Source: Acidimicrobiia bacterium (GTDB lineage Bacteria; Acidobacteriota; Vicinamibacteria; Vicinamibacterales; SCN-69-37). From it: a stretch of DNA of 64,000 bases. Position 1 is the first letter of the stretch. Each line of letters starts with the position of its first letter. Positions 25,569 to 40,547 of the stretch are shown piece after piece. A program made the position numbers and the translations under genes. The stretch spans positions 20,670-84,669 of the forward strand of contig BTVE01000009.1 in assembly GCA_045862915.1 (NCBI GenBank), read 5' to 3'. The notes below the pieces were generated by a model. That model did no database searches. It was not told where the DNA came from and was given only the letters and a program-made list of their open reading frames with translations.

Positions 25569-26695
25569 CGGTCCACCGCCGGAAGCGTGAAGTAGAACGT
25601 GGTGCCGTGGCCGGGTGTGGAGGAGAGCCAGATGCGTCCGCCGTGCCGGTCGATGATCTTGCGGCAGATGGCGAGGCCCACACCCGTGCCCGGGTAGGCT
25701 TCGCGTGTATGCAGGCGCTGAAAGATGACGAAAATACGCTCGAAGTACGCGGCGTCGATACCGATGCCGTTGTCGGCGACGCTGAACTGCCACATCTGGC
25801 CATGGCGCGCGACGCCGATATGAATGTGTGGCGGGTCGCTGCCCCTGAACTTGAGGGCGTTGCCGATCAGGTTCGAGAGCACCTGGCGCAACTGGCTGGC
25901 GTCCGCGAGCACCGCGGGCATCTCGTCGTGAGTCACCGTGGCGTTCGCCTGCACGATCGCTGCGCGCAGCCCGTGCAACGTATCCGTCAGCGCAGTGCCC
26001 GCGTCGGTCGCCGATGGGGCCTCTCCATGCGTGGCGACGCGTGAAAATGCCAGCAGATCTTGAATCAGCTGTTCCATGCGACGGGCGCCTCCCACCGCAA
26101 AGTCGATGAACTCGCAGGCTGTGGCGTCCAGGTGCGGCCGATAGCGCCGTTCAAGCAGTTGAAGGTAACTCGCTACCGTGCGCAGGGGCTCCTGCAGGTC
26201 GTGCGAGGCCACGTACGCAAAACGTTCGAGTTCTTCGTTGGAGCGCCGCAGTTCCTCTTCTGCGCGTTTGCGGGGGCTGATGTCCACCACCGACGCGAGG
26301 ACAAACAAGCCCTCGGCGGTCTCGACGGGATTAAGTCCGATCTCGACGGGAATCTCCGTTCCGTCCTTGCGCACGGCAAACAGGTCGCGGCCTGCGCCCA
26401 TCGCCCGGCTGTGAGGGTTGTGGAGGAATGTGTCGCGGTCGCGAGGGTGCTGGTCCCGGAGCCGGCGCGGCACCAGGCGTTCGATCGACTCTCCGAGCAA
26501 CTCGTCCCGGTGGTAGCCAAACAGGCGTTCGGTTTCGCGATTGACCAGACGAATGATGCCGTGGCGGTCGACCATGACCACCCCGGTCGGGGCCGATTCA
26601 ACGACCGCGCGGAACAGATGCTCCGACGGCGCAGCCGCAGGTGTCTCCGACGGTAAACCCGGTCGCGACTCCAGCATGGATGGGAAACCCGTCAC
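25565..26695 (-). CDS. PAS-domain sensor histidine kinase
   Basis: PAS (VMVDRHGIIRLVNRETERLFGY), H-box ASHDLQEPLRTVASYLQLL, HATPase (NLIGNALKF, DNGIGID, GTGVGLAICRKI). Confidence 0.88.
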   Translation of the reverse strand: MTGFPSMLESRPGLPSETPAAAPSEHLFRAVVESAPTGVVMVDRHGIIRLVNRETERLFGYHRDELLGESIERLVPRRLRDQHPRDRDTFLHNPHSRAMGAGRDLFAVRKDGTEIPVEIGLNPVETAEGLFVLASVVDISPRKRAEEELRRSNEELERFAYVASHDLQEPLRTVASYLQLLERRYRPHLDATACEFIDFAVGGARRMEQLIQDLLAFSRVATHGEAPSATDAGTALTDTLHGLRAAIVQANATVTHDEMPAVLADASQLRQVLSNLIGNALKFRGSDPPHIHIGVARHGQMWQFSVADNGIGIDAAYFERIFVIFQRLHTREAYPGTGVGLAICRKIIDRHGGRIWLSSTPGHGTTFYFTLPAVDR

Positions 26696-26761
26696 ACAGG
26701 ATACTTCGAACCGACGCTGCCCATCGGCCCGGGCCGGGTCCCGTAAACGGACGAACCGCTC

Positions 26762-26770
26762 TGGTAGTAT
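26762..26770 (+). promoter_or_regulatory. Candidate extended -10 promoter element (TGgTAGTAT)
   Basis: The hexamer ends 9 nt before the ATG at 26780, which implies a leaderless or near-leaderless mRNA. There is no convincing -35. Confidence 0.3.
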
Positions 26771-26779
26771 GCCGGGGCT

Positions 26780-29212
26780 ATGACCGAGTCAGGCGCGTCC
26801 TCCTCTGCTATCGATCGTGTGTTGCCGGCGATGCTGGCGTTGTTCGTGGGGAGCGGCGCCGCCGCGCTGATCTACGAAGTGGTCTGGTTCCAGATGCTCC
26901 AGCTTTCGCTGGGCTCATCGTCGGTCTCCCTGGGCGTGTTGCTCGGGGTGTTCATGGGCGGCATGTGTCTGGGGAGCTGGCTGTTTCCGAAAAAGGTGGA
27001 TGCCACACACCATCCGCTGAAGGTCTACGCCTATCTGGAACTGGGCATCGGCCTCTGCGGCCTGCTGGTCCTGTTCATCGTGCCGCTGCTGGGCGGGGTG
27101 TATGCGGCGGTCGCCGGCACCGGACAGTTCAGCGTGTTCCTGCGCGGCCTTGTGGCTGCCATCATCCTGCTGCCGCCGACGCTGATGATGGGGGCGACGT
27201 TGCCCGCCATCGCGCGTTACGTCGAGACGACCCCCAAGGGTGTGTCATGGATGGGATTTTTCTACGGCGGCAACATCGCCGGCGCGGTCATCGGCACTCT
27301 GCTGGCAGGCTTTTACCTGCTGCGGGTGTACGACATGGTCACCGCCACGATGGTGGCCGTGGCGCTCAACGTGCTCGTGGCGGGTCTGGGCCTGTTCCTG
27401 GCGGGGCGGGCGCCGTATGCCGCTGATCAGAAGGCCAAGAAGGATCCGGTGCTGGCCCCCGGCGCCAGGGTCGTGTACATCGCAATCGCTTTGTCCGGCC
27501 TGACAGCCCTGGCCTCGCAGGTCGTGTGGGCGCGTGTGCTGTCGTTGCTAATCGGCGCCACGGTCTACACGTTCTCGCTGATCCTTGCGGTGTTTCTCGT
27601 TGGCCTCGGCATCGGCAGCTCACTCGGCTCGTCGATGGCCCACACACTCAAACACCCGCGGCAGGCACTGGGATGGGTGCAGATGTTGCTCTGTGTGGCG
27701 CTCGCCTACGCGGCGTACATCTCGACGGCCGGTATGCCGTTCTGGCCCATCAACCCGGCCATTTCCTCGGATCCGATTTTTAACTTCCAGCTTGACCTCA
27801 TGCGCGCGGCCTTTGTCGTCATGCCCGGCGCCATCCTGTGGGGCATGAGCTTTCCATTGGCGCTGGCCTCGGTGGCTGAAAAGGGACAAGACCCCGCCCG
27901 GTTGGTGGGTGGTGTCTATGCCGCCAACACTGTGGGCGCCATCATCGGTGCCTTGTTTGCCAGCCTGCTGGCTATCGCCTGGATCGGGTCGCAGCACACC
28001 CAGATGCTGCTGATTGGCCTGTCGGCGATCTCGGGCCTGATGTTGCTTGCCAGCCACGCCGACGAGGTGGGCAAGGGCAAGTCGCAGGTTGTGAGCATGG
28101 CCATGCTCGTGCTGGTGACAGCCGGCGCGGGTCTGCTGGCGCGGTCGGTGCCGCAGATGCCTGGCTTGCTCGTGGCGTACGGCCGGTACGCCGCGACCTG
28201 GGTCGGTCAGAACGAAATCATCTACTCCGGCGAGGGCATGATGGCGTCCGTCGCGGTGTCGCGCACGCCGAACGGCGTCCTCAACTATCACAACGCCGGC
28301 AAGGTCCAGGCGTCCAGTGAGCCGCAGGACATGCGTCTGCAGCGCATGCTCGGCCACATGACCACACTCATTCCGGAGAACGTCCGTACGGCCGTGGTCA
28401 TCGGTTGCGGCGCCGGTGTCACCGCCGGTGCGGTGTCGATTGATCCCGAACTTGAGCAGATGACGATTGCGGAGATCGAACCGCTGGTGCCGGAAGTGGT
28501 CTCGAAGTATTTCTCCGAACACAACTTCGCGGTGGTGCAGAATCCGAAGGTGCGCGTCCACCTCGACGACGCGCGGCACTTCCTGACGACGACCAAAGAC
28601 AAGTTCGACGCCATTACGTCCGACCCGCTGGACCCGTGGGTCAAGGGCGCGGCCACGCTGTATACGCGCGAGTTCTTCGAACTCGTCAAGACGCGCCTCA
28701 ATCCCGGCGGCATCGTCACATTGTTCGTGCAGCTGTACGAAAGCAGCGAAGAAGCCGTCAAGAGCGAGATCGCCACGTTCCTCGAGGCCTTCCCACAGGG
28801 TGTGGTGTTTGCCAACACCATCAACGGACAGGGCTACGACCTCGTGCTTGTGGGCATGCTGGATCCGAAGCCTATCGATGTGGATCGCGTCCAGGCTCGC
28901 CTGAGTGATCCCAGGAACGCAGCCATTGCGCAGTCACTGGCCGAAATCGGGATCTATTCGGCCGTCGACCTGTTCGGCACCTACGGCGGACGCCGGGACG
29001 ACATGGCGCGGTGGCTGGCCAACGCGCAGATCAACACGGACCGCAACCTCCGCCTGCAGTACCTCGCCGGCCTTGGCCTCAACACCTACCAGGCCGCAGG
29101 TATCTACCGGAACATGACCATCGACAGCCAGTATCCGGAAGGCCTGTTCACCGGCTCGGACGCCACCATGCAGGAACTGCGGGCCGCGATTGAACGGGCG
29201 CATGGCAGGTAG
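26780..29212 (+). CDS. Fused polytopic-membrane / spermidine-synthase-like (aminopropyltransferase-fold) protein
   Basis: 810 aa. The N-terminal ~480 aa are highly hydrophobic with many TM helices. The C-terminal Rossmann part carries VVIGCGAGVTAGAV, MTIAEIEPLV and DAITSDPLDPW, as in spermidine synthases. Confidence 0.75.
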   Translation: MTESGASSSAIDRVLPAMLALFVGSGAAALIYEVVWFQMLQLSLGSSSVSLGVLLGVFMGGMCLGSWLFPKKVDATHHPLKVYAYLELGIGLCGLLVLFIVPLLGGVYAAVAGTGQFSVFLRGLVAAIILLPPTLMMGATLPAIARYVETTPKGVSWMGFFYGGNIAGAVIGTLLAGFYLLRVYDMVTATMVAVALNVLVAGLGLFLAGRAPYAADQKAKKDPVLAPGARVVYIAIALSGLTALASQVVWARVLSLLIGATVYTFSLILAVFLVGLGIGSSLGSSMAHTLKHPRQALGWVQMLLCVALAYAAYISTAGMPFWPINPAISSDPIFNFQLDLMRAAFVVMPGAILWGMSFPLALASVAEKGQDPARLVGGVYAANTVGAIIGALFASLLAIAWIGSQHTQMLLIGLSAISGLMLLASHADEVGKGKSQVVSMAMLVLVTAGAGLLARSVPQMPGLLVAYGRYAATWVGQNEIIYSGEGMMASVAVSRTPNGVLNYHNAGKVQASSEPQDMRLQRMLGHMTTLIPENVRTAVVIGCGAGVTAGAVSIDPELEQMTIAEIEPLVPEVVSKYFSEHNFAVVQNPKVRVHLDDARHFLTTTKDKFDAITSDPLDPWVKGAATLYTREFFELVKTRLNPGGIVTLFVQLYESSEEAVKSEIATFLEAFPQGVVFANTINGQGYDLVLVGMLDPKPIDVDRVQARLSDPRNAAIAQSLAEIGIYSAVDLFGTYGGRRDDMARWLANAQINTDRNLRLQYLAGLGLNTYQAAGIYRNMTIDSQYPEGLFTGSDATMQELRAAIERAHGR

Positions 29213-29235: not shown

Positions 29236-30333
29236 ATGGTGCTGCGACGACGGAGTCTGACGCCGGTACTGCTTGCCGTCTTTCTGGCGACCGCCGGGCC
29301 TCTCACGGCCCGGCAGGCGCCGGCGTTGCCGGCGTCGCTGTCCAACGCCCAGTTCTGGGCCCTCAGCAGTGAGTTGTCGGAATCGGACGGATACTTCCGC
29401 TCCGACAATCTCGTCTCAAACGAGATCTACTTTCAGACCATCATTCCTGAACTGATCGAGGTGACCAAGCCGGGGCGTGTCTACCTCGGCGTTGGGCCTG
29501 AGCAGAACTTCACGTACATCTCGGCCCTCAAACCGCGCATGGTATTCATCGTGGACGTGCGGCGCGGGAACCTGCACACACACCTGTTGTACAAGGCGCT
29601 GTTCGAGATGGCGAAGGACCGCGCAGACTTCGTCTCGTTGCTGTTTTCGAAACCCAGACCGGCGGGTCTGACGACCAAGAGCACGGTGCAGGAGATCTTC
29701 AACGCATTCCTGCCGGTCGAGACGTCGGAGACGGCCTACAAGACAAACCTGGCGGCTGTACTCGATCACCTCGTGACCACACGGGAGATCCCGCTGAGCG
29801 TCGACGACCGCAAAGGGATCGAGTACGTCTACTACCACTTCTACTGGTTCGGACCCGGACTGACGTATTCGTCGAGCACCGGTGGCGCGGCACGCGGCAA
29901 CTTCGTCAACTACCAGTCGTTGATGGTGGCCGATGACGGTCTCGGCACCTCGCGCAGCTTTCTGGCGTCGGAGACCCACTTCGACTTTCTCAAGGGACTG
30001 CACGCCAGAAACCTCATCGTGCCTGTGGTGGGCAACTTCGCCGGTTCCAAGGCGCTGCGCAATCTGGGCGCGTGGATCAAGGCGCACGGGTCAATCGTCT
30101 CGGCGTTTTATCTCTCGAATGTCGAGCAGTACCTGAGCGGCGACGGCCTCTGGTACACGTTCTGCGGCAATGTGGCGCAGTTGCCGCTGGACGACACGAG
30201 CACCTTCATCTACTCACAGACCGGCGGACGGGGCGGCGGGGGTCGCGGTTCGCTGCTCTCGTATTACCGGCCGATGCTTCAGGACGTCAAGGCGAACAAA
30301 TGCGACATCGCACCGCCGCCGATTCCACGCTGA
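29236..30333 (+). CDS. Secreted protein of unknown function, paralogue 1 of 3
   Basis: Signal peptide MVLRRRSLTPVLLAVFLATAGPLTA. Shared motifs: SDNLVSNE, YLGVGPEQNFTYI, FIVDVRRGNL, NLIVPVVGNF, YLSNVEQYL. Confidence 0.7.
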   Translation: MVLRRRSLTPVLLAVFLATAGPLTARQAPALPASLSNAQFWALSSELSESDGYFRSDNLVSNEIYFQTIIPELIEVTKPGRVYLGVGPEQNFTYISALKPRMVFIVDVRRGNLHTHLLYKALFEMAKDRADFVSLLFSKPRPAGLTTKSTVQEIFNAFLPVETSETAYKTNLAAVLDHLVTTREIPLSVDDRKGIEYVYYHFYWFGPGLTYSSSTGGAARGNFVNYQSLMVADDGLGTSRSFLASETHFDFLKGLHARNLIVPVVGNFAGSKALRNLGAWIKAHGSIVSAFYLSNVEQYLSGDGLWYTFCGNVAQLPLDDTSTFIYSQTGGRGGGGRGSLLSYYRPMLQDVKANKCDIAPPPIPR

Positions 30334-31430
30334 CGTTCTGGCGGCTCGTCGTGGCGATTGTCTCCACGATGGCACTGGCGGTCTCGGCACCGTCGGCATC
30401 GCCGGCCGACCTGCGGGTGCCGGAGCGGCTGTCTGATGCGCAGTTCTCGCACCTGATGACGGAGTTCTCCGAAGGCGACGGCTACTTTGCCTCCGACAAT
30501 CTGGTGTCGAACGAGCTGACGTTTCAGTGGGTGATTCCCGATCTGCTCAAGGCCTGGACCAACGGGCGCGCCTACGTTGGCGTCGGACCCGATCAGAACT
30601 TCACCTATATCGCCAACCTTCGCCCCTCGGTCGCATTCATCGTCGACATCCGACGCGACAATCTGCGGCTGCAGTTGCTCTACAAGGCGTTGATGGAGAT
30701 GGCGCCCTCGCGCGTCGAGTTCCTGTCGCGGCTGCTGTCGCGGGAGCTCACGTCACCGGTGCCGGCAGACGCGTCAGCTGCCCGTCTGTTTCAGGCATTT
30801 GCGGAAGTGAAGCCCACCGTAGACCGCTTCGCCGCAACGTTTACGGCCGTCAAGGAACGCCTGACCGTGCAGCACGGCCTCCTGTTGTCGGAAGACGATC
30901 TGGGCCACATTGAATACGTGCTGACGGCGTTTTATTACGCAGGCCCCTCGCTGGCGTACGCCAACACCGGATTCCGCGGCCGGTATCCCAGTTACCAGGA
31001 TCTGATGGTCGCCACCGACGAGGCGGGCGACGCGCGGAGTTATCTCGCCGATGAGCAACGGTATGGCGTTGTCCGGCAGATGCAGCTGCGGAATTTGATC
31101 GTTCCGGTGGTGGGAGACTTCACCGGGACGCGTGCGCTCCGCGGCGTGGGGCAGTGGCTCAAGGATCACGGGGCGACGGTGGGGGCGATCTACACGTCCA
31201 ACGTCGAGCAGTACCTCTTCCAGTACCAGACCTGGCCCCGGTACTACGAAAACGTGGCGACGCTGCCGATTGATGACGCCTCGCTGTTCATCCGGTCGTG
31301 TTTTAACACCTGTTCCACCGTGCCGTGGTCGCGCTCGGCGCAGCTGCTTGACCCGGTCGCGGCGCTGTTGCGGGATGTGGCCGCCGGCAAGGTGCAGTCC
31401 TACTGGGAACTGCTCGCGCGCTCCCGCTGA
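30300..31430 (+). CDS. Secreted protein of unknown function, paralogue 2 of 3
   Basis: I chose the ATG at 30300 (MRHRTAADSTLTFWRLVVAIVSTMALAVSAPSA), which overlaps paralogue 1 by 34 nt. Motifs: SDNLVSNE, YVGVGPDQNFTYI, FIVDIRRDNL, NLIVPVVGDF, YTSNVEQYLF. Confidence 0.65.
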   Translation: MRHRTAADSTLTFWRLVVAIVSTMALAVSAPSASPADLRVPERLSDAQFSHLMTEFSEGDGYFASDNLVSNELTFQWVIPDLLKAWTNGRAYVGVGPDQNFTYIANLRPSVAFIVDIRRDNLRLQLLYKALMEMAPSRVEFLSRLLSRELTSPVPADASAARLFQAFAEVKPTVDRFAATFTAVKERLTVQHGLLLSEDDLGHIEYVLTAFYYAGPSLAYANTGFRGRYPSYQDLMVATDEAGDARSYLADEQRYGVVRQMQLRNLIVPVVGDFTGTRALRGVGQWLKDHGATVGAIYTSNVEQYLFQYQTWPRYYENVATLPIDDASLFIRSCFNTCSTVPWSRSAQLLDPVAALLRDVAAGKVQSYWELLARSR

Positions 31431-31439
31431 CGTTCGACA

Positions 31440-33032
31440 CTACCAGTCTGGCGTCACGCCGAATTCCTCGAAGTTCGTGAGGAGGACGCCGATGTCGCCT
31501 GCATACCAGGCAAGGCTCCACACACACGTGATGACCGCTGCCGCGATACGCCAGCGCGGCGCGTGGCGTGGTGGTGTCAGCAGCAGCGGCAGCGACACCA
31601 GCAGCGGCGAGATGTGTTTGGTCATGCGCCAGTCCACGAAGGTGAAGACCACGGCCGTCACCAGCGTCCACGACAACAGCAGCGCGGTGAACGTGTGATC
31701 GCGCGGGACACAAGCGTGCCGGAGGTCGTGACACGCGCACAGGATTGCCACCGGCAGGAGTAAATATCCCGTGTGCCCACCGAACTCGCGCCACAGGCCG
31801 AGGTGCGACAGATAGCCCTCGTAGCCGAGCGGGTTGTCGTGGGTAATTCGGTCCATGAGGTGGTGCTGGACGTGGTCGGCGAGGAAGTCGCCCGGATTCA
31901 CCAGCAGTCCCCAGATCCAGAACGCGGCGCTGCCGGCGGCAAAGGCGAGCACGATGCCGCCCGTGCGGTGCCACGCACGCATCCATGTGCCTGCGGTCAG
32001 CCGAGCGCCGGCGAGCAGGGCTGCCGGCAGCAGCACCAGTTTGTGGTTGGCCAGCGCACCCCATGCCGCCGCCCAGGTGATGCCGCGAAGACGCCGAATG
32101 TGGTCAGCGTGCACGAGCATCAACAGTGCGGCACAGGTCGAGATCGCGAAATAGCCCCCATACGAGGACCGCACGAGTACCTCGGGATTGGCGGCATACG
32201 CCAGAGCCATCAAGGCGCCGAGCCACACGCGACGTGACCGGCGCACCGTGATCACTGCAATCATCGCCACCGAGAGTGCTGCCAGGACGACATTCGGTGA
32301 GCGGGTCTCCGCGATCAACGGGGTGCGGGCGTAGTGTTCGTACGCCGCCGCCAGCGCGGCCGCATCGTCACGGCCAGTCGCGGCTGAGGTGATCGTGTCG
32401 TACGCCCGAAGCGACTCCACACCACCCTGCAGGACGATCGACGCGGCGCCATAGACGTGGAGCAGTGGCGGATGGGCAAAGTAGTAGAGCAGCCCACGAT
32501 CATTGATCACCCGCGGCGTCAGGGATGTCAGCAGGGCATAACCGGGGCCCTGCAGATCCAGGTCGTGGTCCACCATCGGCGGCACCACGGCAACGGCCAT
32601 CCGCTCGAACACGACGAGTGATCCCGCGAACATCACCACCGCCAGCGCGGCGGCCGCTCCCCGGACAGCTCGAGTCGCAGGGACGCGCGTGACGCGGCCT
32701 GACGGCAGGACGAACGGCAGGATCACGCCCATCGCGGTGAACGCGCACAGTGAGAACCAGAGTGACGCGGCGGCCAGGGGCACTGCGACCAGCCGCAACG
32801 CCAGGGCAGCGACGATCAGGACCAGCGCTGCGGCGACGAGGTCCCGCGCCAGGGTGACACCCCAGGCGCGCGAGTGCGAGCGCCAGCACCAGCGCCACGC
32901 CACGCCCGGCAGCCACCCGAGCACCGCAGTGACGATGAGCATGCGCAGCGGGCCTGGCCAGAGGTGGAGCACCGCCGGGTGTGCGGCCAGCATGCCGAGC
33001 ACGACTCCGGCCGTCGTGCGCACCGACTTCAC
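31440..33032 (-). CDS. Polytopic membrane protein with a GT-C (ArnT/PMT-like) signature
   Basis: 530 aa, more than 10 hydrophobic segments. The first large loop carries VDHDLDLQG...YYFAHPPLLH, resembling the acidic motif plus HPPL of GT39/GT83-type enzymes. Confidence 0.5.
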   Translation of the reverse strand: MKSVRTTAGVVLGMLAAHPAVLHLWPGPLRMLIVTAVLGWLPGVAWRWCWRSHSRAWGVTLARDLVAAALVLIVAALALRLVAVPLAAASLWFSLCAFTAMGVILPFVLPSGRVTRVPATRAVRGAAAALAVVMFAGSLVVFERMAVAVVPPMVDHDLDLQGPGYALLTSLTPRVINDRGLLYYFAHPPLLHVYGAASIVLQGGVESLRAYDTITSAATGRDDAAALAAAYEHYARTPLIAETRSPNVVLAALSVAMIAVITVRRSRRVWLGALMALAYAANPEVLVRSSYGGYFAISTCAALLMLVHADHIRRLRGITWAAAWGALANHKLVLLPAALLAGARLTAGTWMRAWHRTGGIVLAFAAGSAAFWIWGLLVNPGDFLADHVQHHLMDRITHDNPLGYEGYLSHLGLWREFGGHTGYLLLPVAILCACHDLRHACVPRDHTFTALLLSWTLVTAVVFTFVDWRMTKHISPLLVSLPLLLTPPRHAPRWRIAAAVITCVWSLAWYAGDIGVLLTNFEEFGVTPDW

Positions 33033-34855
33033 CGCGCGGCTCCTGGAATGCGGTAGTACGCGCAGACGCCGTCGTCGACGACCAGCGGCAGTTGCAGCGG
33101 CAGCGTGTTGTTGGCGATGACGTCAACGAAGCCGTACTTCGCGGCAAGGGCCACCCACTGTGCCGTGGTGCGATCAGGCCATCGGATGGCCAGTTCACTG
33201 CGCATCCCTGTGGGAATGGGCTGATGGTAGATCTCGTCGAGCATTTGGGCGGCGCGTGGCAACACCGCGGGCGTGAACGGCAGGATGTTGATGTCCATCA
33301 CCTCGAACAGGAATGGTCGCCGCGTGCGCGCCTGTATCCACTCGGCCGCCCACAGCCGTGGAGCCAGCAGCAGTGTCCCCTCGAACCGGCTGGCCTCGGC
33401 AAGTGCGACATGGCAGGCACCGGTTCCGCCGGCACCGTACCATCGGCTGCGCTGGAACGGCAGCGCACACATCACGAGAACCGCCACCGTTGCCAGCCAG
33501 CCCCACCAGCGAGGCACCCGGCGGGTGGGCCGGCCCACGGCGCGGCTCTGCATGAAGGCGACTGCAAGCACGAGGCCCAGGGGGCCGACACCAGAAAGAA
33601 AGTACAGCGCGGTCTTCAGTGGTGTCGCCGGGGTGGCGAGATACGCCGCGCCAAACCCTGACCAGAACGTGATGCCCTGCACGAGTGCCATCTGCACCGC
33701 GATGAGTGTGCCTGCCAAGAGCAGTGCGGCAAACCGGTGCCCACCGACCAGCGCCAGGTGAGCCAATCGCGCTCCGGTCACCACGATGAAAAACCAGGAC
33801 GCCACATTCATCCATCGCGGGATCAGAGCCGTGCGCATCTGCCAGGGGACAACCGTCGGCGCGTACGCGAGCGTGACCGTAAACGCGGCGCTGATGACCG
33901 TCATCGTCAGCACGACCGCCGCCACGGCTCGTACGCCGGGTGGCAGCAGCGAGCGCCAGCGCGTCAGCAGCAGAGTTCCCAGCAGCAGCGTGTGAAACGC
34001 CGGCTCGAGCAACAGGTGCAGCCGCCTCGTCGCAGGAATGACGGTGTGATCGTTCCAGCGTTCAACGATCTGCCGCGCGAACGTTTGCGCTGCGGCGAGA
34101 TCGACCACCGGCGAGGAGGGCAGATACAGGAAATACGCGGCCAGCGACACGACACCAACGCCGAGGCCGATCGCCGCCATCCGCGCCACACCGGGCCACG
34201 CGTCGCCGACACGCGCACGGCCCAGCCAGGCGACCGGCAGCAGGGCTGCGTACAACGGCAGCGCGAGGCCAGGGTGGATGAACGGCAGGAGCGCTGCGGG
34301 AAGGGCCGCCGCCTTCCAGCGCTCGAGTCCAATCAAGCCAAGGATCAGAATGCAGAGGTACAAACCGACGGCGCCAAACACCCCGGGCGCGGCCGGAAAG
34401 GTGTTCGGATACAGGTGCCCGTGAAACACGTCGACGTACATGCCGATCCATCGAGGCTGGTGCATCGACAACTTCACGATGAGTGCCAGGGTGATAACAG
34501 CTGACAGCCAATGTCGCGAAATGGCCAGCGCGAGTGTCGTCAACGCTGCGCACGCGAGTGCGCCCTGCAGTCCGGAGAAGATGAGCGAGACATACCATTC
34601 CCGGATGCCCATCCACAGCAGCAGCGCGGCGAGCTGCGTGACAAGCGAATGCGGGCGGAGGTAGGTCAGCGGGACGAGACTGTCGGCCGGGTACTCGACA
34701 ACGCCGGCGATGATCTGCGCCGGTATGAGGTTGTCGGTCCAGACAGGCTTGACCAGCACACCCAGCGCCGCTCCGAGCAGCGCGGCGACACCGATCACCC
34801 AGGCGGTCGGTAATCGGTCGGCGTGCATGCGCCATTCTGTCATATCGAGTTTCAT
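33029..34855 (-). CDS. Large polytopic membrane protein, unknown function
   Basis: 608 aa, many TM segments plus a ~130-aa C-terminal soluble part. ATGA overlap with the downstream GT-C-like gene. Alternative starts at 34843 or further in. Confidence 0.55.
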   Translation of the reverse strand: MKLDMTEWRMHADRLPTAWVIGVAALLGAALGVLVKPVWTDNLIPAQIIAGVVEYPADSLVPLTYLRPHSLVTQLAALLLWMGIREWYVSLIFSGLQGALACAALTTLALAISRHWLSAVITLALIVKLSMHQPRWIGMYVDVFHGHLYPNTFPAAPGVFGAVGLYLCILILGLIGLERWKAAALPAALLPFIHPGLALPLYAALLPVAWLGRARVGDAWPGVARMAAIGLGVGVVSLAAYFLYLPSSPVVDLAAAQTFARQIVERWNDHTVIPATRRLHLLLEPAFHTLLLGTLLLTRWRSLLPPGVRAVAAVVLTMTVISAAFTVTLAYAPTVVPWQMRTALIPRWMNVASWFFIVVTGARLAHLALVGGHRFAALLLAGTLIAVQMALVQGITFWSGFGAAYLATPATPLKTALYFLSGVGPLGLVLAVAFMQSRAVGRPTRRVPRWWGWLATVAVLVMCALPFQRSRWYGAGGTGACHVALAEASRFEGTLLLAPRLWAAEWIQARTRRPFLFEVMDINILPFTPAVLPRAAQMLDEIYHQPIPTGMRSELAIRWPDRTTAQWVALAAKYGFVDVIANNTLPLQLPLVVDDGVCAYYRIPGAAR

Positions 34856-34860
34856 ATAAT
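34855..34860 (+). promoter_or_regulatory. Perfect TATAAT box 11 nt upstream of the ATG at 34872
   Basis: The sequence catTATAATcagtcgcaccgATG lies in a 16-nt divergent gap, and the box overlaps the start codon of the minus-strand gene. I found no good -35. Confidence 0.3.
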
Positions 34861-34871
34861 CAGTCGCACCG

Positions 34872-36686
34872 ATGAGTGCTGACGAGCGCGAGCGCTATCG
34901 CCTGTGGCCGTCGGTGCTGCTGCTGGCGTGCGCCACGCTCGTCGTGTGCGCGCCGTTGCTGACGCGCTGGGACGCCTACGGCTGGCAGGACTGGGACCAG
35001 TTCACCACAAGGCATGAGGTCGCGCGGCTCGCGGTCATGACCTTCCGCGACTGGCCCGTCTGGAATCCCTACGCCGAGGGAGGCACGGTGCTGCTGGCGC
35101 ATCCCCACTCGCCGGTGCTGGCTCCGTGGTTCGCTCTGACACTCCTGCTCGGGTCTCAGATAGCCGTACGTGTGCTCGTCGTCGCGGCCATGTGGCTTGG
35201 CGCAGTGGGAATGGCGGTCTGGTTGCGCGACCACCGCGCAACACGTGCGGCAGGTGTGCTGGCCGGCATCCTCCTGATGATGTCGACCCATTACGTGCTG
35301 CACGTCACCGAAGGACACCTGGAGTGGACGGCGCTGGGCGTGATGCCGTGGGTGGCGGTGTGGCTGGAGCGCGCGGCTGCCGGACGCAGGCGGGCCGGCG
35401 TCATCGCAGCGCTACTGCTCGCCTCGGTGCTGATCTCTGGAAACGTCTACATCCCGGCCCTGTTTGCCATCGTCCTGACGACCTGGTCGATGTTGGAAGC
35501 GGTGCGTGCACGTACCCTCAGGCCGGTGGTGGTCTGGGGGGCCGCGGCCGCGCTGGCGGTGGGCCTTGCTGCCGCAAAGTTGATCCCGACGGCGATGTTC
35601 GTCCGCGAGTACCCGCGGGAACAGACGCTGGTCAGTCACACGTCGCTGAACACGCTGCGTGCAGCCCTGTTCCACCCGAAGCCTGCGGCGATCTACCACT
35701 ACTACCGTGACGAAGCCGCGGTCGGGCAGGATCCTCCGCCTCCCGCTCCAGCCGACCTGTTCGAGATGACGGTGGGCTTCCATGAAGCCGGCGCGTACCT
35801 CTCTGCGGTTGGTATTGCGCTTGTATGCGTTGGCGCGCTTGGCGCATGGCGTCGTCACTGGCCGCTGCTGATGACCGGCGCTGTCGCGGGTGTGTTCGTG
35901 CTGGGCTGGACCTCGCCGATTGATCTGTGGGCCGAGCTGCACAAGCTGCCGTTTTATCGCCAGTTGCAACTGCCGTCACGCATGCTCGCCGGAGTCATCT
36001 TCGTCGCAGCCTTTTTCGGCGGGCTCGGACTGGACCTCGTCGTCCACTGGCTGCGCGGCCGGACCCACAGGGCGGTGCTGGTCGGCTGGCTGCTGATCGC
36101 CCTCAGTTATGGCGAGTTGGCGATACAGGCGCATCTCGTCTTCCGCGACGTCTTCCGCCTGTCGCCGATCGTCCTGCCGGTCAGTCCCACGTTTGTGCAA
36201 CACGAGCCGCCGCCACAGGCTGCCGAGCGGGTGCCGCATCAGATGCACAGCCTGCTGTTGCCGCGGGTGCGCGCCAATTGGGGTGCGCTCGACGGATACG
36301 AAAACCTGGCCGTCGAGCAGGGCGACGTCATGGTCGTTGGTGAGCTCGGCTACCGCGGCGAGGTGTTCCTCACAGGGACTGACGGGACCGTGACGCTCTC
36401 GCACTGGTCGATGCGCGCGCTCACCATCGAGGTCGTCGCCTCATCACCCGGCGTGTTGACCGTCAATCAGAATTTCGATCGCGGGTGGTCCGTCGAGGTG
36501 ACGCCGGAGGCCGGCGCGACATCCCCCCAGCCGGCGGTGGAAGCGACGGGCCGTTTGCTTGCCGCGCCCGTCCCTCAGGGCCGTTCGCGTGTGACGTTCA
36601 CCTACTGGCCGCGTGGCCTGGCCGCCGGCCTCTGGCTCTCGGCGCTCAGCCTGCTGGCGGCCGCCGTCTGGTGGCGAAGGCCATGA
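34872..36686 (+). CDS. Large polytopic membrane protein, unknown function (possible glycosyltransferase/polymerase-type)
   Basis: 604 aa. The N-terminal ~430 aa have many TM helices. The C-terminal ~170 aa are soluble, followed by a final TM (GLWLSALSLLAAAVWW). Confidence 0.55.
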   Translation: MSADERERYRLWPSVLLLACATLVVCAPLLTRWDAYGWQDWDQFTTRHEVARLAVMTFRDWPVWNPYAEGGTVLLAHPHSPVLAPWFALTLLLGSQIAVRVLVVAAMWLGAVGMAVWLRDHRATRAAGVLAGILLMMSTHYVLHVTEGHLEWTALGVMPWVAVWLERAAAGRRRAGVIAALLLASVLISGNVYIPALFAIVLTTWSMLEAVRARTLRPVVVWGAAAALAVGLAAAKLIPTAMFVREYPREQTLVSHTSLNTLRAALFHPKPAAIYHYYRDEAAVGQDPPPPAPADLFEMTVGFHEAGAYLSAVGIALVCVGALGAWRRHWPLLMTGAVAGVFVLGWTSPIDLWAELHKLPFYRQLQLPSRMLAGVIFVAAFFGGLGLDLVVHWLRGRTHRAVLVGWLLIALSYGELAIQAHLVFRDVFRLSPIVLPVSPTFVQHEPPPQAAERVPHQMHSLLLPRVRANWGALDGYENLAVEQGDVMVVGELGYRGEVFLTGTDGTVTLSHWSMRALTIEVVASSPGVLTVNQNFDRGWSVEVTPEAGATSPQPAVEATGRLLAAPVPQGRSRVTFTYWPRGLAAGLWLSALSLLAAAVWWRRP

Positions 36687-37411
36687 CGACGGTGGACGTT
36701 GTGGTGCCGGTGCGCGACGAAGCGCATGTGCTGGAAGGATCGATCGCGCGACTGCGCGACTTCCTGGCGGCACACGCGGGCTACGACTGGACGATCACGA
36801 TCGCGGAAAACGGCTCCACCGATCGGACGCGCGAGATCGCCGGACACCTGTGTGCGGCTGACCCGCGGCTGCGATTCCTCGCGCTTGACCTGCCCGGACG
36901 TGGTCGCGCGCTCCGGCAGGCCTGGACGACCTCCGTCGCCGACGTGGTGTGTTACGTGGACGTTGATCACTCCACCGAACTGGCAGACCTGCCGAAGCTG
37001 ATCGATCCGGTCGCGACAGATGTGTGTGATCTGGCCGTGGCCTCTCGCAGGCTGCCCGGATCCCGTGTGCGACGCTCGTGGCGACGGCAGGTGATCTCCG
37101 ACACGTACAACACGTTGCTGCGTGTCGCGCTCTCGGTGTCATTCTCGGATGCACAAACCGGCTGCAAGGCGCTGAGCCGCCGCGTCGTCACCGAACTGCT
37201 CCCCGACGTGGTTGACCAGTCGTGGTTTCTCGACACAGAACTGCTCGTGCTGGCCGAACGCCGCGGCTACCGCATTCTCGATGTCCCGGTGTCGTGGACC
37301 GAGGATGACGACAGCCGAGTGCGGATCATCCCGACCGCGATTGAAGACATGAAGGGCGTGTTCCGGCTCTGGCGCACGCACGGTCGCCGACCACGAGGAG
37401 CGCGCGCGTGA
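36683..37411 (+). CDS. GT2-family glycosyltransferase, polyprenyl-phosphate sugar synthase (Ppm1/GtrB-like)
   Basis: The ATG at 36683 overlaps the upstream stop (ATGA). VDVVVPVRDE...ITIAENGSTDRT...VCYVDVDHST...TGCKAL is a GT-A fold with a DxD-type VDVD. Confidence 0.75.
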   Translation: MTTVDVVVPVRDEAHVLEGSIARLRDFLAAHAGYDWTITIAENGSTDRTREIAGHLCAADPRLRFLALDLPGRGRALRQAWTTSVADVVCYVDVDHSTELADLPKLIDPVATDVCDLAVASRRLPGSRVRRSWRRQVISDTYNTLLRVALSVSFSDAQTGCKALSRRVVTELLPDVVDQSWFLDTELLVLAERRGYRILDVPVSWTEDDDSRVRIIPTAIEDMKGVFRLWRTHGRRPRGARA

Positions 37412-38775
37412 AGGTCGCGCTCGTCAACCCCGGACAGACGACCGTGGTGAGTCGCCGTGGTCGCATCTACAACCGCGTGTGGCCGCCGCTGGATCTGGCG
37501 ACCACTGCCGGCGGCCTGCTGAGCGACGGAGTGGATGTGTCGATCGTCGACGCAAACGCCGAAAACCTCACCCCCGCCGAGGTCGCCGATCGTGTGCGCG
37601 GCGCCGACATGGTCTTCGTCACATCGTCGAGCCTCGATCGCTGGCAGTGTCCAGTCCTCGACCTCCGTCCGTTCCACGAAACCGTCGCGGCACTGCGTGC
37701 CCAGACACCGCAGCTCATCGTCCTTGGCAGCCACGGCACCGTGCGGCCGGCCGAGGTGCTTGCGCTCACGCAGGCGAACGCCGTTGTCCGCGGTGAGCCC
37801 GAAGCGACCGTCCGTGCAATTGTGCGGAAGGGGCGTGCAGACGATGTGCCTGGTGTGACGTGTCGCGACGCCGATGGCCGAAGTGTGCATCACGCCGATC
37901 CACCCCCGATGCCGCTGGCGCAACTGCCGGCGCCCGCGTGGCACCTGCTCCCGATGGACCGGTACCACTACGAGGTGCTGGGCGGGAACTTCACGCTCTT
38001 TGAAATGAGCCGCGGCTGCGCTTCGTCATGCACCTTCTGTCTGTTGAAGACATACGGCGAAGGCGTGCGCCGCAAGCCACTCGATGCCTTGTTGCGCGAG
38101 ATTCACACCGCGGTGACCGAGCACGGTGTACGGACCGCCTATTTCATTGACCTCGAGTTCACCGTGCTGCGCAAACAGGTGCTTGAACTCTGCGCGGCCC
38201 TTGAAGCTGCGAAGTATCCGCTCACCTGGTGCTGCCAGACGCGGCTCGATCTGGTAGACGATGAGCTGCTGGCGGCGATGGGTCGAGCCGGATGCCGCTT
38301 GATTCATGTCGGTGTGGAGGCGGGCAGCGATCGCGTGCTGGCATCCACCAACAAGGACCTGACACTGGCACAGGTGAGGGAAGGGCTCGCGAAGATTCAC
38401 GCTGCGGGGATCGACACCGCGTGTTTTTTTCTGCTGGGGCTGCCCGGTGCCACACGCCAGGATGCGGATGACTTGTTGCGGCTGGCGATCGAACTCGGAC
38501 CGACGTATCCCTTGTTCCACGTCGCCGCGCCGTATCCCGGGACGGCCATGTACGACGCCGTGCACGACACGCCGGGAGCCGCGTTCAGCGACGAGTCGCT
38601 GTTTCCCGAAGCGGTCGTGGGGCCGTTGACGTTGCAGGAACTCAAGGGCCTGACGCGTCGCGCGTACCTGCGGTATTACGCGAGGCCCGCGTATGTCGCG
38701 GCGAGGATCCGGCGAGGGCAGTGGGGGCTGTTGTGGCGGCAGGCCCGGCTGTTTGCCGGACTGGTCCGCAGCTGA
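37408..38775 (+). CDS. B12-binding-domain radical SAM enzyme
   Basis: GTGA overlap with the GT2 gene. N-terminal cobalamin-binding Rossmann part (KVALVNPG...VDVSIVDANAENL...MVFVTSSS). Radical SAM cluster FEMSRGCASSCTFCLL (CxxxCxxC). Confidence 0.8.
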   Translation: MKVALVNPGQTTVVSRRGRIYNRVWPPLDLATTAGGLLSDGVDVSIVDANAENLTPAEVADRVRGADMVFVTSSSLDRWQCPVLDLRPFHETVAALRAQTPQLIVLGSHGTVRPAEVLALTQANAVVRGEPEATVRAIVRKGRADDVPGVTCRDADGRSVHHADPPPMPLAQLPAPAWHLLPMDRYHYEVLGGNFTLFEMSRGCASSCTFCLLKTYGEGVRRKPLDALLREIHTAVTEHGVRTAYFIDLEFTVLRKQVLELCAALEAAKYPLTWCCQTRLDLVDDELLAAMGRAGCRLIHVGVEAGSDRVLASTNKDLTLAQVREGLAKIHAAGIDTACFFLLGLPGATRQDADDLLRLAIELGPTYPLFHVAAPYPGTAMYDAVHDTPGAAFSDESLFPEAVVGPLTLQELKGLTRRAYLRYYARPAYVAARIRRGQWGLLWRQARLFAGLVRS

Positions 38776-38791
38776 GAAGATACGGGCATCC

Positions 38792-39961: not shown

Positions 39962-39964
39962 GTA

Positions 39965-40159
39965 TTGTCTATGGTGGTTACCGGCGAATACCATCGAGCC
40001 ATGCGCACGGTCGAGGTGGTTGCCGGTTTGCTGAGGGAGTGGGCTCGGCGGGGGTGGCTGAGTCCCCCCGTACATGTGCCTCTGCCGGCCGTTCGCAAGC
40101 CGGTGGCCCCGCTGGCCACGGTGCTGCTTGAACTCGACCTCGACCGCGACGACCGCTAG
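39965..40159 (+). CDS. Small hypothetical protein (64 aa)
   Basis: It starts (TTG 39965 or ATG 39971) 3 nt after the paralogue 3 stop. Third-position GC is about 80% by hand count, consistent with coding. No recognisable motif. Confidence 0.3.
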   Translation: MSMVVTGEYHRAMRTVEVVAGLLREWARRGWLSPPVHVPLPAVRKPVAPLATVLLELDLDRDDR

Positions 40160-40216
40160 TTTGGGCCGCCCGGGCCCTGGGCATCGAAGAATTTCGGCTC
40201 TGATTTCGTGACACGG

Positions 40217-40246
40217 TTGTTGTTTCCGTTCCGGCTGTGTTATGCT
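40217..40246 (+). promoter_or_regulatory. Candidate promoter of the rpsL super-operon
   Basis: TTGTTG, 18-nt spacer, TGtTATGCT (extended -10). It lies about 300 nt upstream of the rpsL ATG. Confidence 0.3.
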
Positions 40247-40547
40247 CGTCCGGTTCTTCGGGCACTAGGACACCCTATCTAGTGCTCGCTTCAGACGGCC
40301 CTGAACGAAATCGCCGTCTTGTAGTTACCGAGCGCCACGCTCGCCGCGCGACACGCGCGTGCCATAGCCGGCGCCACGCTGTTTGCCAGCAATAGGGGAA
40401 ATGTTTCAGGTGCCGAACCCGTGAGGGTTCCCAGGCCTGGAGCGAACACGACTCGCCGAACCGATGGCGCGCGCACTCGCGTCGTCGCTGGCCGGTGTGA
40501 TGTGTTGGGTTGTTTCAGGAAACGGACGAAGGTTCAAGGTTCACGGT

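Follow-up and report, generated by a model that had tools for sequence, protein, structure and literature searches.

DUF7790 paralogues with predicted export signals and a methyltransferase-like core, encoded behind a fused MFS/SpeE-like gene in Vicinamibacterales

A 64-kb window of a Vicinamibacterales genome (positions 20,670 to 84,669 of contig BTVE01000009.1, assembly GCA_045862915.1, numbered here from 1 to 64,000) encodes three paralogous proteins that, by profile score, are further members of the catalogued Pfam family DUF7790 (PF25046) and do not make up a new family. They are predicted to be soluble proteins carrying Sec-type signal peptides, and structural modelling suggests that they share a class-I-methyltransferase-like Rossmann core with a variable helical insertion, the assignment to this fold class being weakly supported. 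Gene order among relatives points to an ancestral Vicinamibacterales layout in which a gene for a fused major facilitator superfamily (MFS)/SpeE-like protein is followed by at least three tandem DUF7790 genes and then by rpsL. The conserved pairing of DUF7790 with this predicted outward-facing SpeE-like transporter fusion was not described in the literature that we searched. DUF7790 is a large exported family with a solved structure. Its members resemble cofactor-dependent methyltransferases and would reside in a compartment from which no such cofactor is known. The lineage studied here links them to a membrane protein with a second methyltransferase-type domain that is also predicted to face outward. 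A possible reading, which we adopt tentatively, is that the copies are periplasmic enzymes that use an adenosyl or S-adenosylmethionine (SAM)-type co-substrate, supplied via a partner, on envelope or secreted acceptors.

Three DUF7790 paralogues, their predicted export and their fold

The three DUF7790 genes of the window are the following.

29236 to 30333, plus strand: DUF7790 copy 1, 365 amino acids, predicted to be exported, signal-like segment at about residues 1–25, PF25046 score 92.6 bits
30300 to 31430, plus strand: DUF7790 copy 2, 376 amino acids, predicted to be exported, signal-like segment at about residues 1–34, PF25046 score 123.2 bits
38792 to 39961, plus strand: DUF7790 copy 3, 389 amino acids, predicted to be exported, signal-like segment at about residues 1–26, PF25046 score 101 bits

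An earlier reading of this DNA from the letters alone (the sequence-only reading) had proposed a triplicated secreted family at these positions, and the open reading frames (ORFs) are exactly as it described, including the 34 nt shared by copies 1 and 2 (30300–30333). Pairwise BLASTP comparison confirmed the paralogy, with 44% identity between copies 1 and 2 (E 2e-95) and 46% between copies 1 and 3 (E 5e-108). The mean column identity in a three-way alignment is 65%, and all of the conserved blocks that had been listed are present in it: NAQF/DAQF/NEQF, DG(Y/F)FxSDNLVSNE, Y(L/V)GV(G/A)P(E/D)QNFTYI, (V/A)FIVD(I/V)RRxNL, YKA(L/I)xE(M/L), NL(I/L)VPVVG(D/N) and YxSNVEQYL. The count of three holds for the window; the genome has a fourth paralogue on another contig (G000:C24:6340-7569), which is 40% identical to copy 2 (E 6e-76). 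This fourth copy (locus L008, minus strand) is a solo gene next to a gene for a 756-residue protein, judged by eye to be M1-peptidase-like, with no SpeE fusion nearby.

The proteins had been described as a family not recognised, and this has to be revised. All three exceed the PF25046 gathering score of 23 bits, PF25046 is also matched by all 123 family representatives that were scanned, and a relative has a crystal structure (PDB 6ULO). The profile hidden Markov model and structure searches led to no annotated domain of known function, DUF7790 being itself a domain of unknown function. The family comprises 4328 clusters at 50% identity (E ≤ 1e-3), and 6751 matches were found among 8000 candidates scored in a 90% collection; the named matches are metagenome-assembled genomes of Acidobacteria/Vicinamibacterales and Gemmatimonadaceae. 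Pfam and NCBIfam scans of copies 1–3 at E ≤ 1 gave nothing beyond DUF7790 and LIC_10091. The latter model (NF047518, LIC_10091 family lipoprotein, an equivalog) is matched over partial stretches only, with 49.3, 68.3 and 49.7 bits against a cut-off of 350, and by these scores the copies are distant relatives of NF047518, not members.

The best sequence match is 6ULO (E 3e-16), which is also the sole match in a profile search of PDB sequences. It is an N-terminally truncated, uncharacterised protein from Leptospira interrogans that has in common with the copies the motifs VSNE, GVGxEQN, the Asp of strand β2, G(N/D) and SNxExY. Its identity to copy 2 is only about 17%, and the Leptospira protein lacks the RR that follows the β2 Asp in the copies. 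LIC10091 is LipL40 of L. interrogans, a putative lipoprotein (PMC2889836, PMC2935396) that was reported to bind host plasminogen in vitro (PMC2889836) and served as a non-binding control in another study (PMC2935396). Our literature search found no interpretation of 6ULO, no mention of DUF7790 and nothing functional.

Signal peptides were judged by a hydropathy and charge heuristic, by which cleavage sites are not rigorously predicted. Each of the three copies begins with basic residues and then one hydrophobic stretch, the only transmembrane (TM)-like segment of the protein, and by this heuristic all three N termini have the features of a Sec-type cleavable signal. A signal-like N terminus is found in 108 of 121 full-length homologues, the feature being kept but not the sequence, and no mature part contains a TM segment; the earlier proposal that the copies are exported agrees with these predictions. 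Unlike the Leptospira relative, for which a lipoprotein nature has been described, copies 1–3 have cleavable-type signals without a lipobox. Both groups would be exported. The signal regions of copies 1 and 2 lack Cys, and in copy 3 the sequence L-I-G-C lies within the hydrophobic core, which runs on for 10 more residues, and does not qualify as a lipoprotein signal. Some DUF7790 relatives carry C-terminal CarboxypepD_reg, fn3 or TonB_C domains (P0198, P0178, P0175 and one member of the 123-sequence alignment). The CarboxypepD_reg and fn3 extensions are β-sandwich domains, and other DUF7790 proteins of 590–780 residues have extra regions that match no Pfam family.

A pair of arginines is present in the n-region of 74 of the 123 family sequences, and the genome encodes two TatC genes. 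Copy 2 has R-H-R, and its positional orthologues vary between RHR, KHR, RCR and RR. Twin-arginine (Tat) export with a pre-bound cofactor was considered as a general route and rejected, because the arginine pair is not conserved among positional orthologues, which makes Sec export more likely than Tat export.

It is extremely improbable that the copies are ordinary cytoplasmic methyltransferases whose signal peptides arise from wrongly chosen start codons. The ORFs of this high-GC DNA do stay open upstream of the chosen starts (at 30072 for copy 2 and at 38693 for copy 3), but the longer starts would overlap upstream genes by 83–262 nt. The start of copy 2 at 30300 is supported because homologues of the same length, 376 residues, cover 100% of it, and the basic and hydrophobic N terminus is retained across the homologues without conservation of sequence. 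The periplasmic-type domains fused to relatives and the lipoprotein description of the Leptospira member point the same way.

A structural model of copy 2 was built with AlphaFold2 (AF2) from 34 homologues and has a pLDDT of 90.3 and a pTM of 0.86. Strands were assigned by DSSP on the model. A cleavable-looking N-terminal helix is followed by a conserved N-terminal segment and then by the Rossmann core, which consists of β1 (residues 91–94), a helix, β2 (111–116), β3 (267–271), β4 (294–300), β5 (329–335) and a final strand (346–352). A helical insertion of about 145 residues (119–263) splits the core between β2 and β3. A Foldseek search against the PDB returned 6ULO first (E 2e-14, TMt 0.71) and after it class I methyltransferases only (Dam, NNMT, CcbJ and others), with a Foldseek probability of 0.97–0.99 for Dam.

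The most conserved part of the model is a candidate pocket:

30579 to 30647, plus strand: motif I loop of copy 2, G94-V95-G96-P97-x-Q99-N100, through Asp116 at the end of β2; candidate nucleotide or adenosyl pocket

Across 123 sequences Gly-94 is invariant and Gly-96 and Asp-116 are at least 90% conserved, and in the 34 sequences the pocket columns are likewise invariant or at least 90% conserved. Clusters of conserved residues follow β1 (GVGPxQN), β2 (D116-x-R118), β3 (P269..G272(D/N)) and β4 (Y298-x-SNVE), so that they sit at the C-terminal ends of the strands, at the positions of methyltransferase motifs I–IV. A Gly-rich G-x-G after β1, an acidic end of β2 and G(D/N) after β3 form the classic adenosine-binding signature. 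The Gly-rich loop after β1 and the acidic residue ending β2, by which class I methyltransferases are judged, are thus both found in copy 2. Residues that are at least 90% conserved make up 18 of 28 in the β1–β2 segment as against 28 of 145 in the insertion. A conserved core with a divergent insertion is the pattern expected for a common cofactor site with divergent acceptor-recognition parts.

A comparable known arrangement is that of class I methyltransferases with an inserted target-recognition domain (E. coli Dam, 2ORE and 4RTP; NNMT), to which strand order and motif positions correspond. Like these enzymes, copy 2 has a large helical insertion after β2 and a conserved polar motif after β4. 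It differs in that the model has six strands rather than the seven of class I methyltransferases, and in that the copies are predicted to be extracytoplasmic. The sequence-only reading had seen a Rossmann/methyltransferase-like motif pattern. This finds some, though weak, backing at the level of the fold from AF2 and Foldseek, but sequence and profile methods give no such link, and the spacing from motif I to the β2 Asp, which it had put at about 15 residues, is actually about 20.

The fused MFS/SpeE-like protein and the conserved gene array

The gene directly upstream of copy 1 encodes a membrane protein.

26780 to 29212, plus strand: fused MFS-like/SpeE-like membrane protein, 810 amino acids, with 13 predicted TM helices (about residues 10–455) and a C-terminal spermidine-synthase-fold domain (about residues 479–700 plus an extension)

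With 123.5 bits the fusion passes the cut-off of 40 for NCBIfam NF037959 (fused MFS/spermidine synthase); it also has a match to PF01564. In its AF2 model (pLDDT 80), 13 membrane helices precede a SpeE fold, for which the top Foldseek matches are SpeE structures (1UIR, 1INL and 3O4F; TMt 0.6–0.76). A 59-residue helix (372–430) consists of two hydrophobic cores parted by SQHTQ. The number of Lys and Arg residues in alternate inter-helix segments is 17 versus 1, and the means over 23 orthologues are 14.7 versus 1.3. Such a strong positive-inside bias fits an N-in topology with 13 TM helices, in which the SpeE-like domain is predicted to face the periplasm.

The SpeE-like domain scores 76 bits on TIGR00417, for which the cut-off is 249.55, and does not qualify as a spermidine synthase proper. 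Compared with SpeE (PF01564, TIGR00417), it keeps the fold, a D-x-x-D-P segment and the acidic residue after β2. Unlike SpeE, it carries an Ala in place of the acidic gatekeeper, it is joined to 13 TM helices, and it is predicted to lie outside the cytoplasm. In a HMMER alignment its motif I reads G-C-G-A-G, as against GGGEG/GGGDG in the Thermus and E. coli enzymes, and this Ala-545 is invariant in the 23 orthologues. Section 9 of one study (PMC10349129) describes the acidic residue of GxG(D/E)G as a requirement for decarboxylated SAM, and the same source gives its replacement as the feature that separates NHMT, a fungal methyltransferase with seven TM helices resident in the endoplasmic reticulum (ER), from spermidine synthases. 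With the acidic motif I residue absent, the fusion is more likely to be a SAM-type transferase than an aminopropyltransferase, by analogy with these enzymes.

NHMT (Aspergillus nidulans AN4663; PMC10349129) resembles the fusion in combining a polytopic membrane domain with a domain annotated as spermidine synthase. The acidic residue is replaced by Ile in NHMT and by Ala in the fusion. The substrates of NHMT are secreted proteins, on which it acts in a compartment other than the cytosol, and the domain of the fusion is likewise predicted to be extracytoplasmic. The two differ in that NHMT is eukaryotic and ER-resident and its seven TM helices have a fold known only from fungi, whereas the fusion has 13 TM helices and a membrane part that is MFS according to NCBIfam. 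The comparison in terms of homology concerns the SpeE-like domain only. NHMT is an analogue for the upstream fusion and not for DUF7790. A literature search on membrane-bound or MFS spermidine synthases found nothing functional. A second gene of the fused MFS/SpeE type is present in this genome at G000:C57:17845-19800.

The linkage of the tandem pair to the spermidine-synthase-like fusion, which had been noticed from this one locus, is real and conserved. In 21 of the 25 genomes of this order that have DUF7790, a tandem array is immediately preceded, on its own strand, by a gene for a SpeE fusion of about 815 residues. Among 80 related loci from other assemblies, for which a neighbourhood of 8 kb was considered, the fusion occurs within that distance in 26 and directly upstream on the same strand in 23; the loci with a fusion include two of Gemmatimonadaceae type. 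The arrays contain 2 to about 10 copies and usually end at rpsL. Copies 1, 2 and 3 are positional orthologues of the first, second and third tandem copies of the relatives, with identities of 67–74%, 61–69% and 59–69%, respectively.

Phylogenetic co-occurrence with the fused gene, which the sequence-only reading had suggested as a check, is only marginal: NF037959 is matched in 25 of 25 DUF7790-positive genomes versus 13 of 16 negative genomes (Fisher p about 0.05, hand-calculated). Every DUF7790-positive genome examined has at least one NF037959 match, which in the four Gemmatimonadaceae-type genomes that were checked falls within an open frame of 766–822 residues. Judged by these counts, NF037959 is too common to discriminate by its presence.

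Possible functions of the DUF7790 proteins

If the copies are SAM-type enzymes of the periplasm, an adenosyl-type co-substrate, most likely SAM, would be bound in the canonical Rossmann pocket formed by the loops after β1 to β4, and a group would be transferred to envelope or secreted acceptors. The cofactor site would be common to the three paralogues, and their choice of acceptor would vary with the divergent helical insertion. Entry of the co-substrate into the periplasm would be by way of the MFS-like part of the upstream fusion, in whose SpeE-like domain, likewise predicted to face outward, the acidic residue that selects decarboxylated SAM is absent. In a more elaborate version, which we consider rather unlikely, the MFS/SpeE-like fusion and the secreted DUF7790 paralogues would together form an extracytoplasmic system for SAM-dependent alkylation. 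The transporter domain would bring in SAM or a SAM-derived donor, and the SpeE-like domain and the three DUF7790 enzymes would methylate different targets. If this were true, it would be the first described family of periplasmic SAM-utilising enzymes, and it might account for the so far unexplained methylation that exported proteins undergo in bacteria such as Leptospira, which has the DUF7790 member LipL40. Should either protein bind SAM, bacteria would need a periplasmic SAM supply, which would imply a new class of envelope modification; should neither bind it, the family would show a methyltransferase scaffold re-used for different chemistry.

Several observations weigh against a SAM-type enzyme. 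To our knowledge, neither a SAM pool in the bacterial periplasm nor an exporter that would fill it has been described, and a literature phrase search on periplasmic methyltransferases found nothing. Export is probably by Sec, in an unfolded state and without a pre-bound cofactor, as suggested by the variable n-regions, which sharpens the paradox of a methyltransferase-like fold outside the cytoplasm. The structural matches to methyltransferases are weak (E ≥ 1e-3, TM score 0.3–0.45, root mean square deviation about 10 Å). Pfam methyltransferase models are matched by none of the 123 family representatives, even at E ≤ 1, and an hhalign comparison of the family profile with the neighbouring SpeE-like domain finds nothing (probability 0.3%). 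Neither a SAM riboswitch nor any other Rfam element was detected in the 64-kb window, nor at E ≤ 1 in 26500–26900. The gene neighbourhoods further indicate that the partnership with the SpeE fusion is facultative. Two genomes (G002 and G010) keep an intact fusion beside rpsL and have no DUF7790 anywhere in the genome. Twelve Gemmatimonadaceae-type genomes have about 2–6 dispersed DUF7790 genes each (a hand count from split matches), of which only two genomes have a copy beside the fusion. Most Gemmatimonadaceae copies, like the fourth copy of the present genome, are solo. Solo loci have no conserved neighbour: after clustering of the flanking ORFs of 54 such loci, no family was shared by over 8 of them, and spurious ORFs are among the members of the largest clusters.

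The same extracytoplasmic location and Sec-type export would suit periplasmic enzymes that need no cofactor, namely a hydrolase, a lyase or a transferase with an external donor (for example, a lipid-linked sugar or a phospholipid head group) built on a re-used methyltransferase-like Rossmann scaffold. Their association with the SpeE fusion would then stem from a common envelope pathway and not from a shared co-substrate. The family has many conserved Asp, Glu, Asn, Gln, Ser, Tyr, Arg and Lys residues and no conserved His or Cys, a pattern that fits carbohydrate or phosphate chemistry as well as SAM binding. The lack of a sequence-level link to methyltransferases and the existence of solo copies without a partner also speak for such enzymes, but the adenosine-binding signature is the best-conserved part of the protein, and every fold match beyond 6ULO with a Foldseek probability above 0.9 is a SAM enzyme. 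On balance we regard this explanation as somewhat unlikely.

A non-catalytic role is unlikely. The copies would be periplasmic ligand-binding or adaptor proteins (pseudo-enzymes) that deliver substrates to the outward SpeE-like domain, regulate it or are modified by it. Tandem genes in 2–10 copies directly behind a transporter-type gene do resemble arrays of binding proteins, and the sole experimental reports on the relative LipL40 concern plasminogen binding in vitro, not catalysis (PMC2889836). Binding proteins that differ in specificity would be expected to show the opposite of what is seen here, where the conserved residues are identical in the paralogues and clustered in one pocket and the periphery is variable. 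The family also persists as solo genes far from such a partner, and no conserved mature N-terminal residue suggests the status of a substrate as for NHMT. Use of binding proteins is not known for MFS transporters.

The 7.3-kb insertion and other features of the locus

Between copies 2 and 3 the window contains genes with no counterpart in the arrays of the relatives.

31440 to 38775, mixed strands: inserted block of 7.3 kb, which splits the DUF7790 array and is not part of the module
31440 to 33032 and 33029 to 34855, minus strand: two overlapping genes for polytopic membrane proteins, no Pfam or NCBIfam match
34872 to 36686: YfhO-like gene, identified by Pfam/NCBIfam
36686 to 37411: glycosyltransferase family 2 (GT2) gene, polyprenyl-phosphate-sugar-synthase-like, identified by Pfam/NCBIfam
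37408 to 38775: B12-binding radical SAM gene; HpnJ is its best match in NCBIfam, with a score well under the cut-off

The G+C content of the block is about 3–5 points above that of the flanking DUF7790 genes. No direct or inverted repeats were found at its borders (31431–31440 and 38776–38791). The stop codon of copy 2 (31428–31430) and that of the convergent minus-strand membrane gene (31440–31442) are 9 nt apart, which leaves no room for a terminator between the two transcripts.

The third copy had been taken to close a GT2/radical-SAM operon. It starts 16 nt past the radical-SAM stop on the same strand, and co-transcription is likely here. That copy 3, and by extension DUF7790, is a functional part of a GT2/GT-C-like/radical-SAM glycosylation operon is nevertheless very improbable. 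Copy 3 is orthologous to the third tandem copy of relatives that have no such block, and hence did not originate with the GT2 and radical-SAM genes. None of the 80 related loci carries genes of the block within 8 kb of DUF7790. The orthologous YfhO-GT2-radical-SAM unit (71% identity) sits on contigs other than that of the DUF7790 array in G015 and G006, and in G037 it is likewise on another contig. Gene order therefore argues that an unrelated glycosylation/radical-SAM block has split the array in this genome and that the link of copy 3 to it is a secondary juxtaposition. Membership in this operon and start-codon artefacts are both essentially excluded as explanations.

No Rfam family reaches its gathering score in the window (1–64000), despite the long array of ribosomal-protein genes that starts at rpsL. 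In two genomes of the same genus, G010 (L099, on C30) and G002 (L100, on C32), the SpeE-like fusion is 81–87% identical and the whole array has been lost. The former array site is occupied by a GntR gene and ABC-transporter genes in G010, and by a gene for a 571-residue secreted protein on the opposite strand in G002. Very large arrays are found at L098 (G022:C8:239000-258500; same contig as L022) and L011, where about 8–10 DUF7790 genes separate the SpeE fusion from rpsL. Several of these genes have frameshifts or are incomplete, possibly because of errors in long-read assembly or because they are pseudogenes. In the present genome, copy 3 and rpsL are separated by about 590 nt (39962–40547) without a convincing gene, and in close relatives (L009 and L010) this position is taken by a divergent GntR-family gene.

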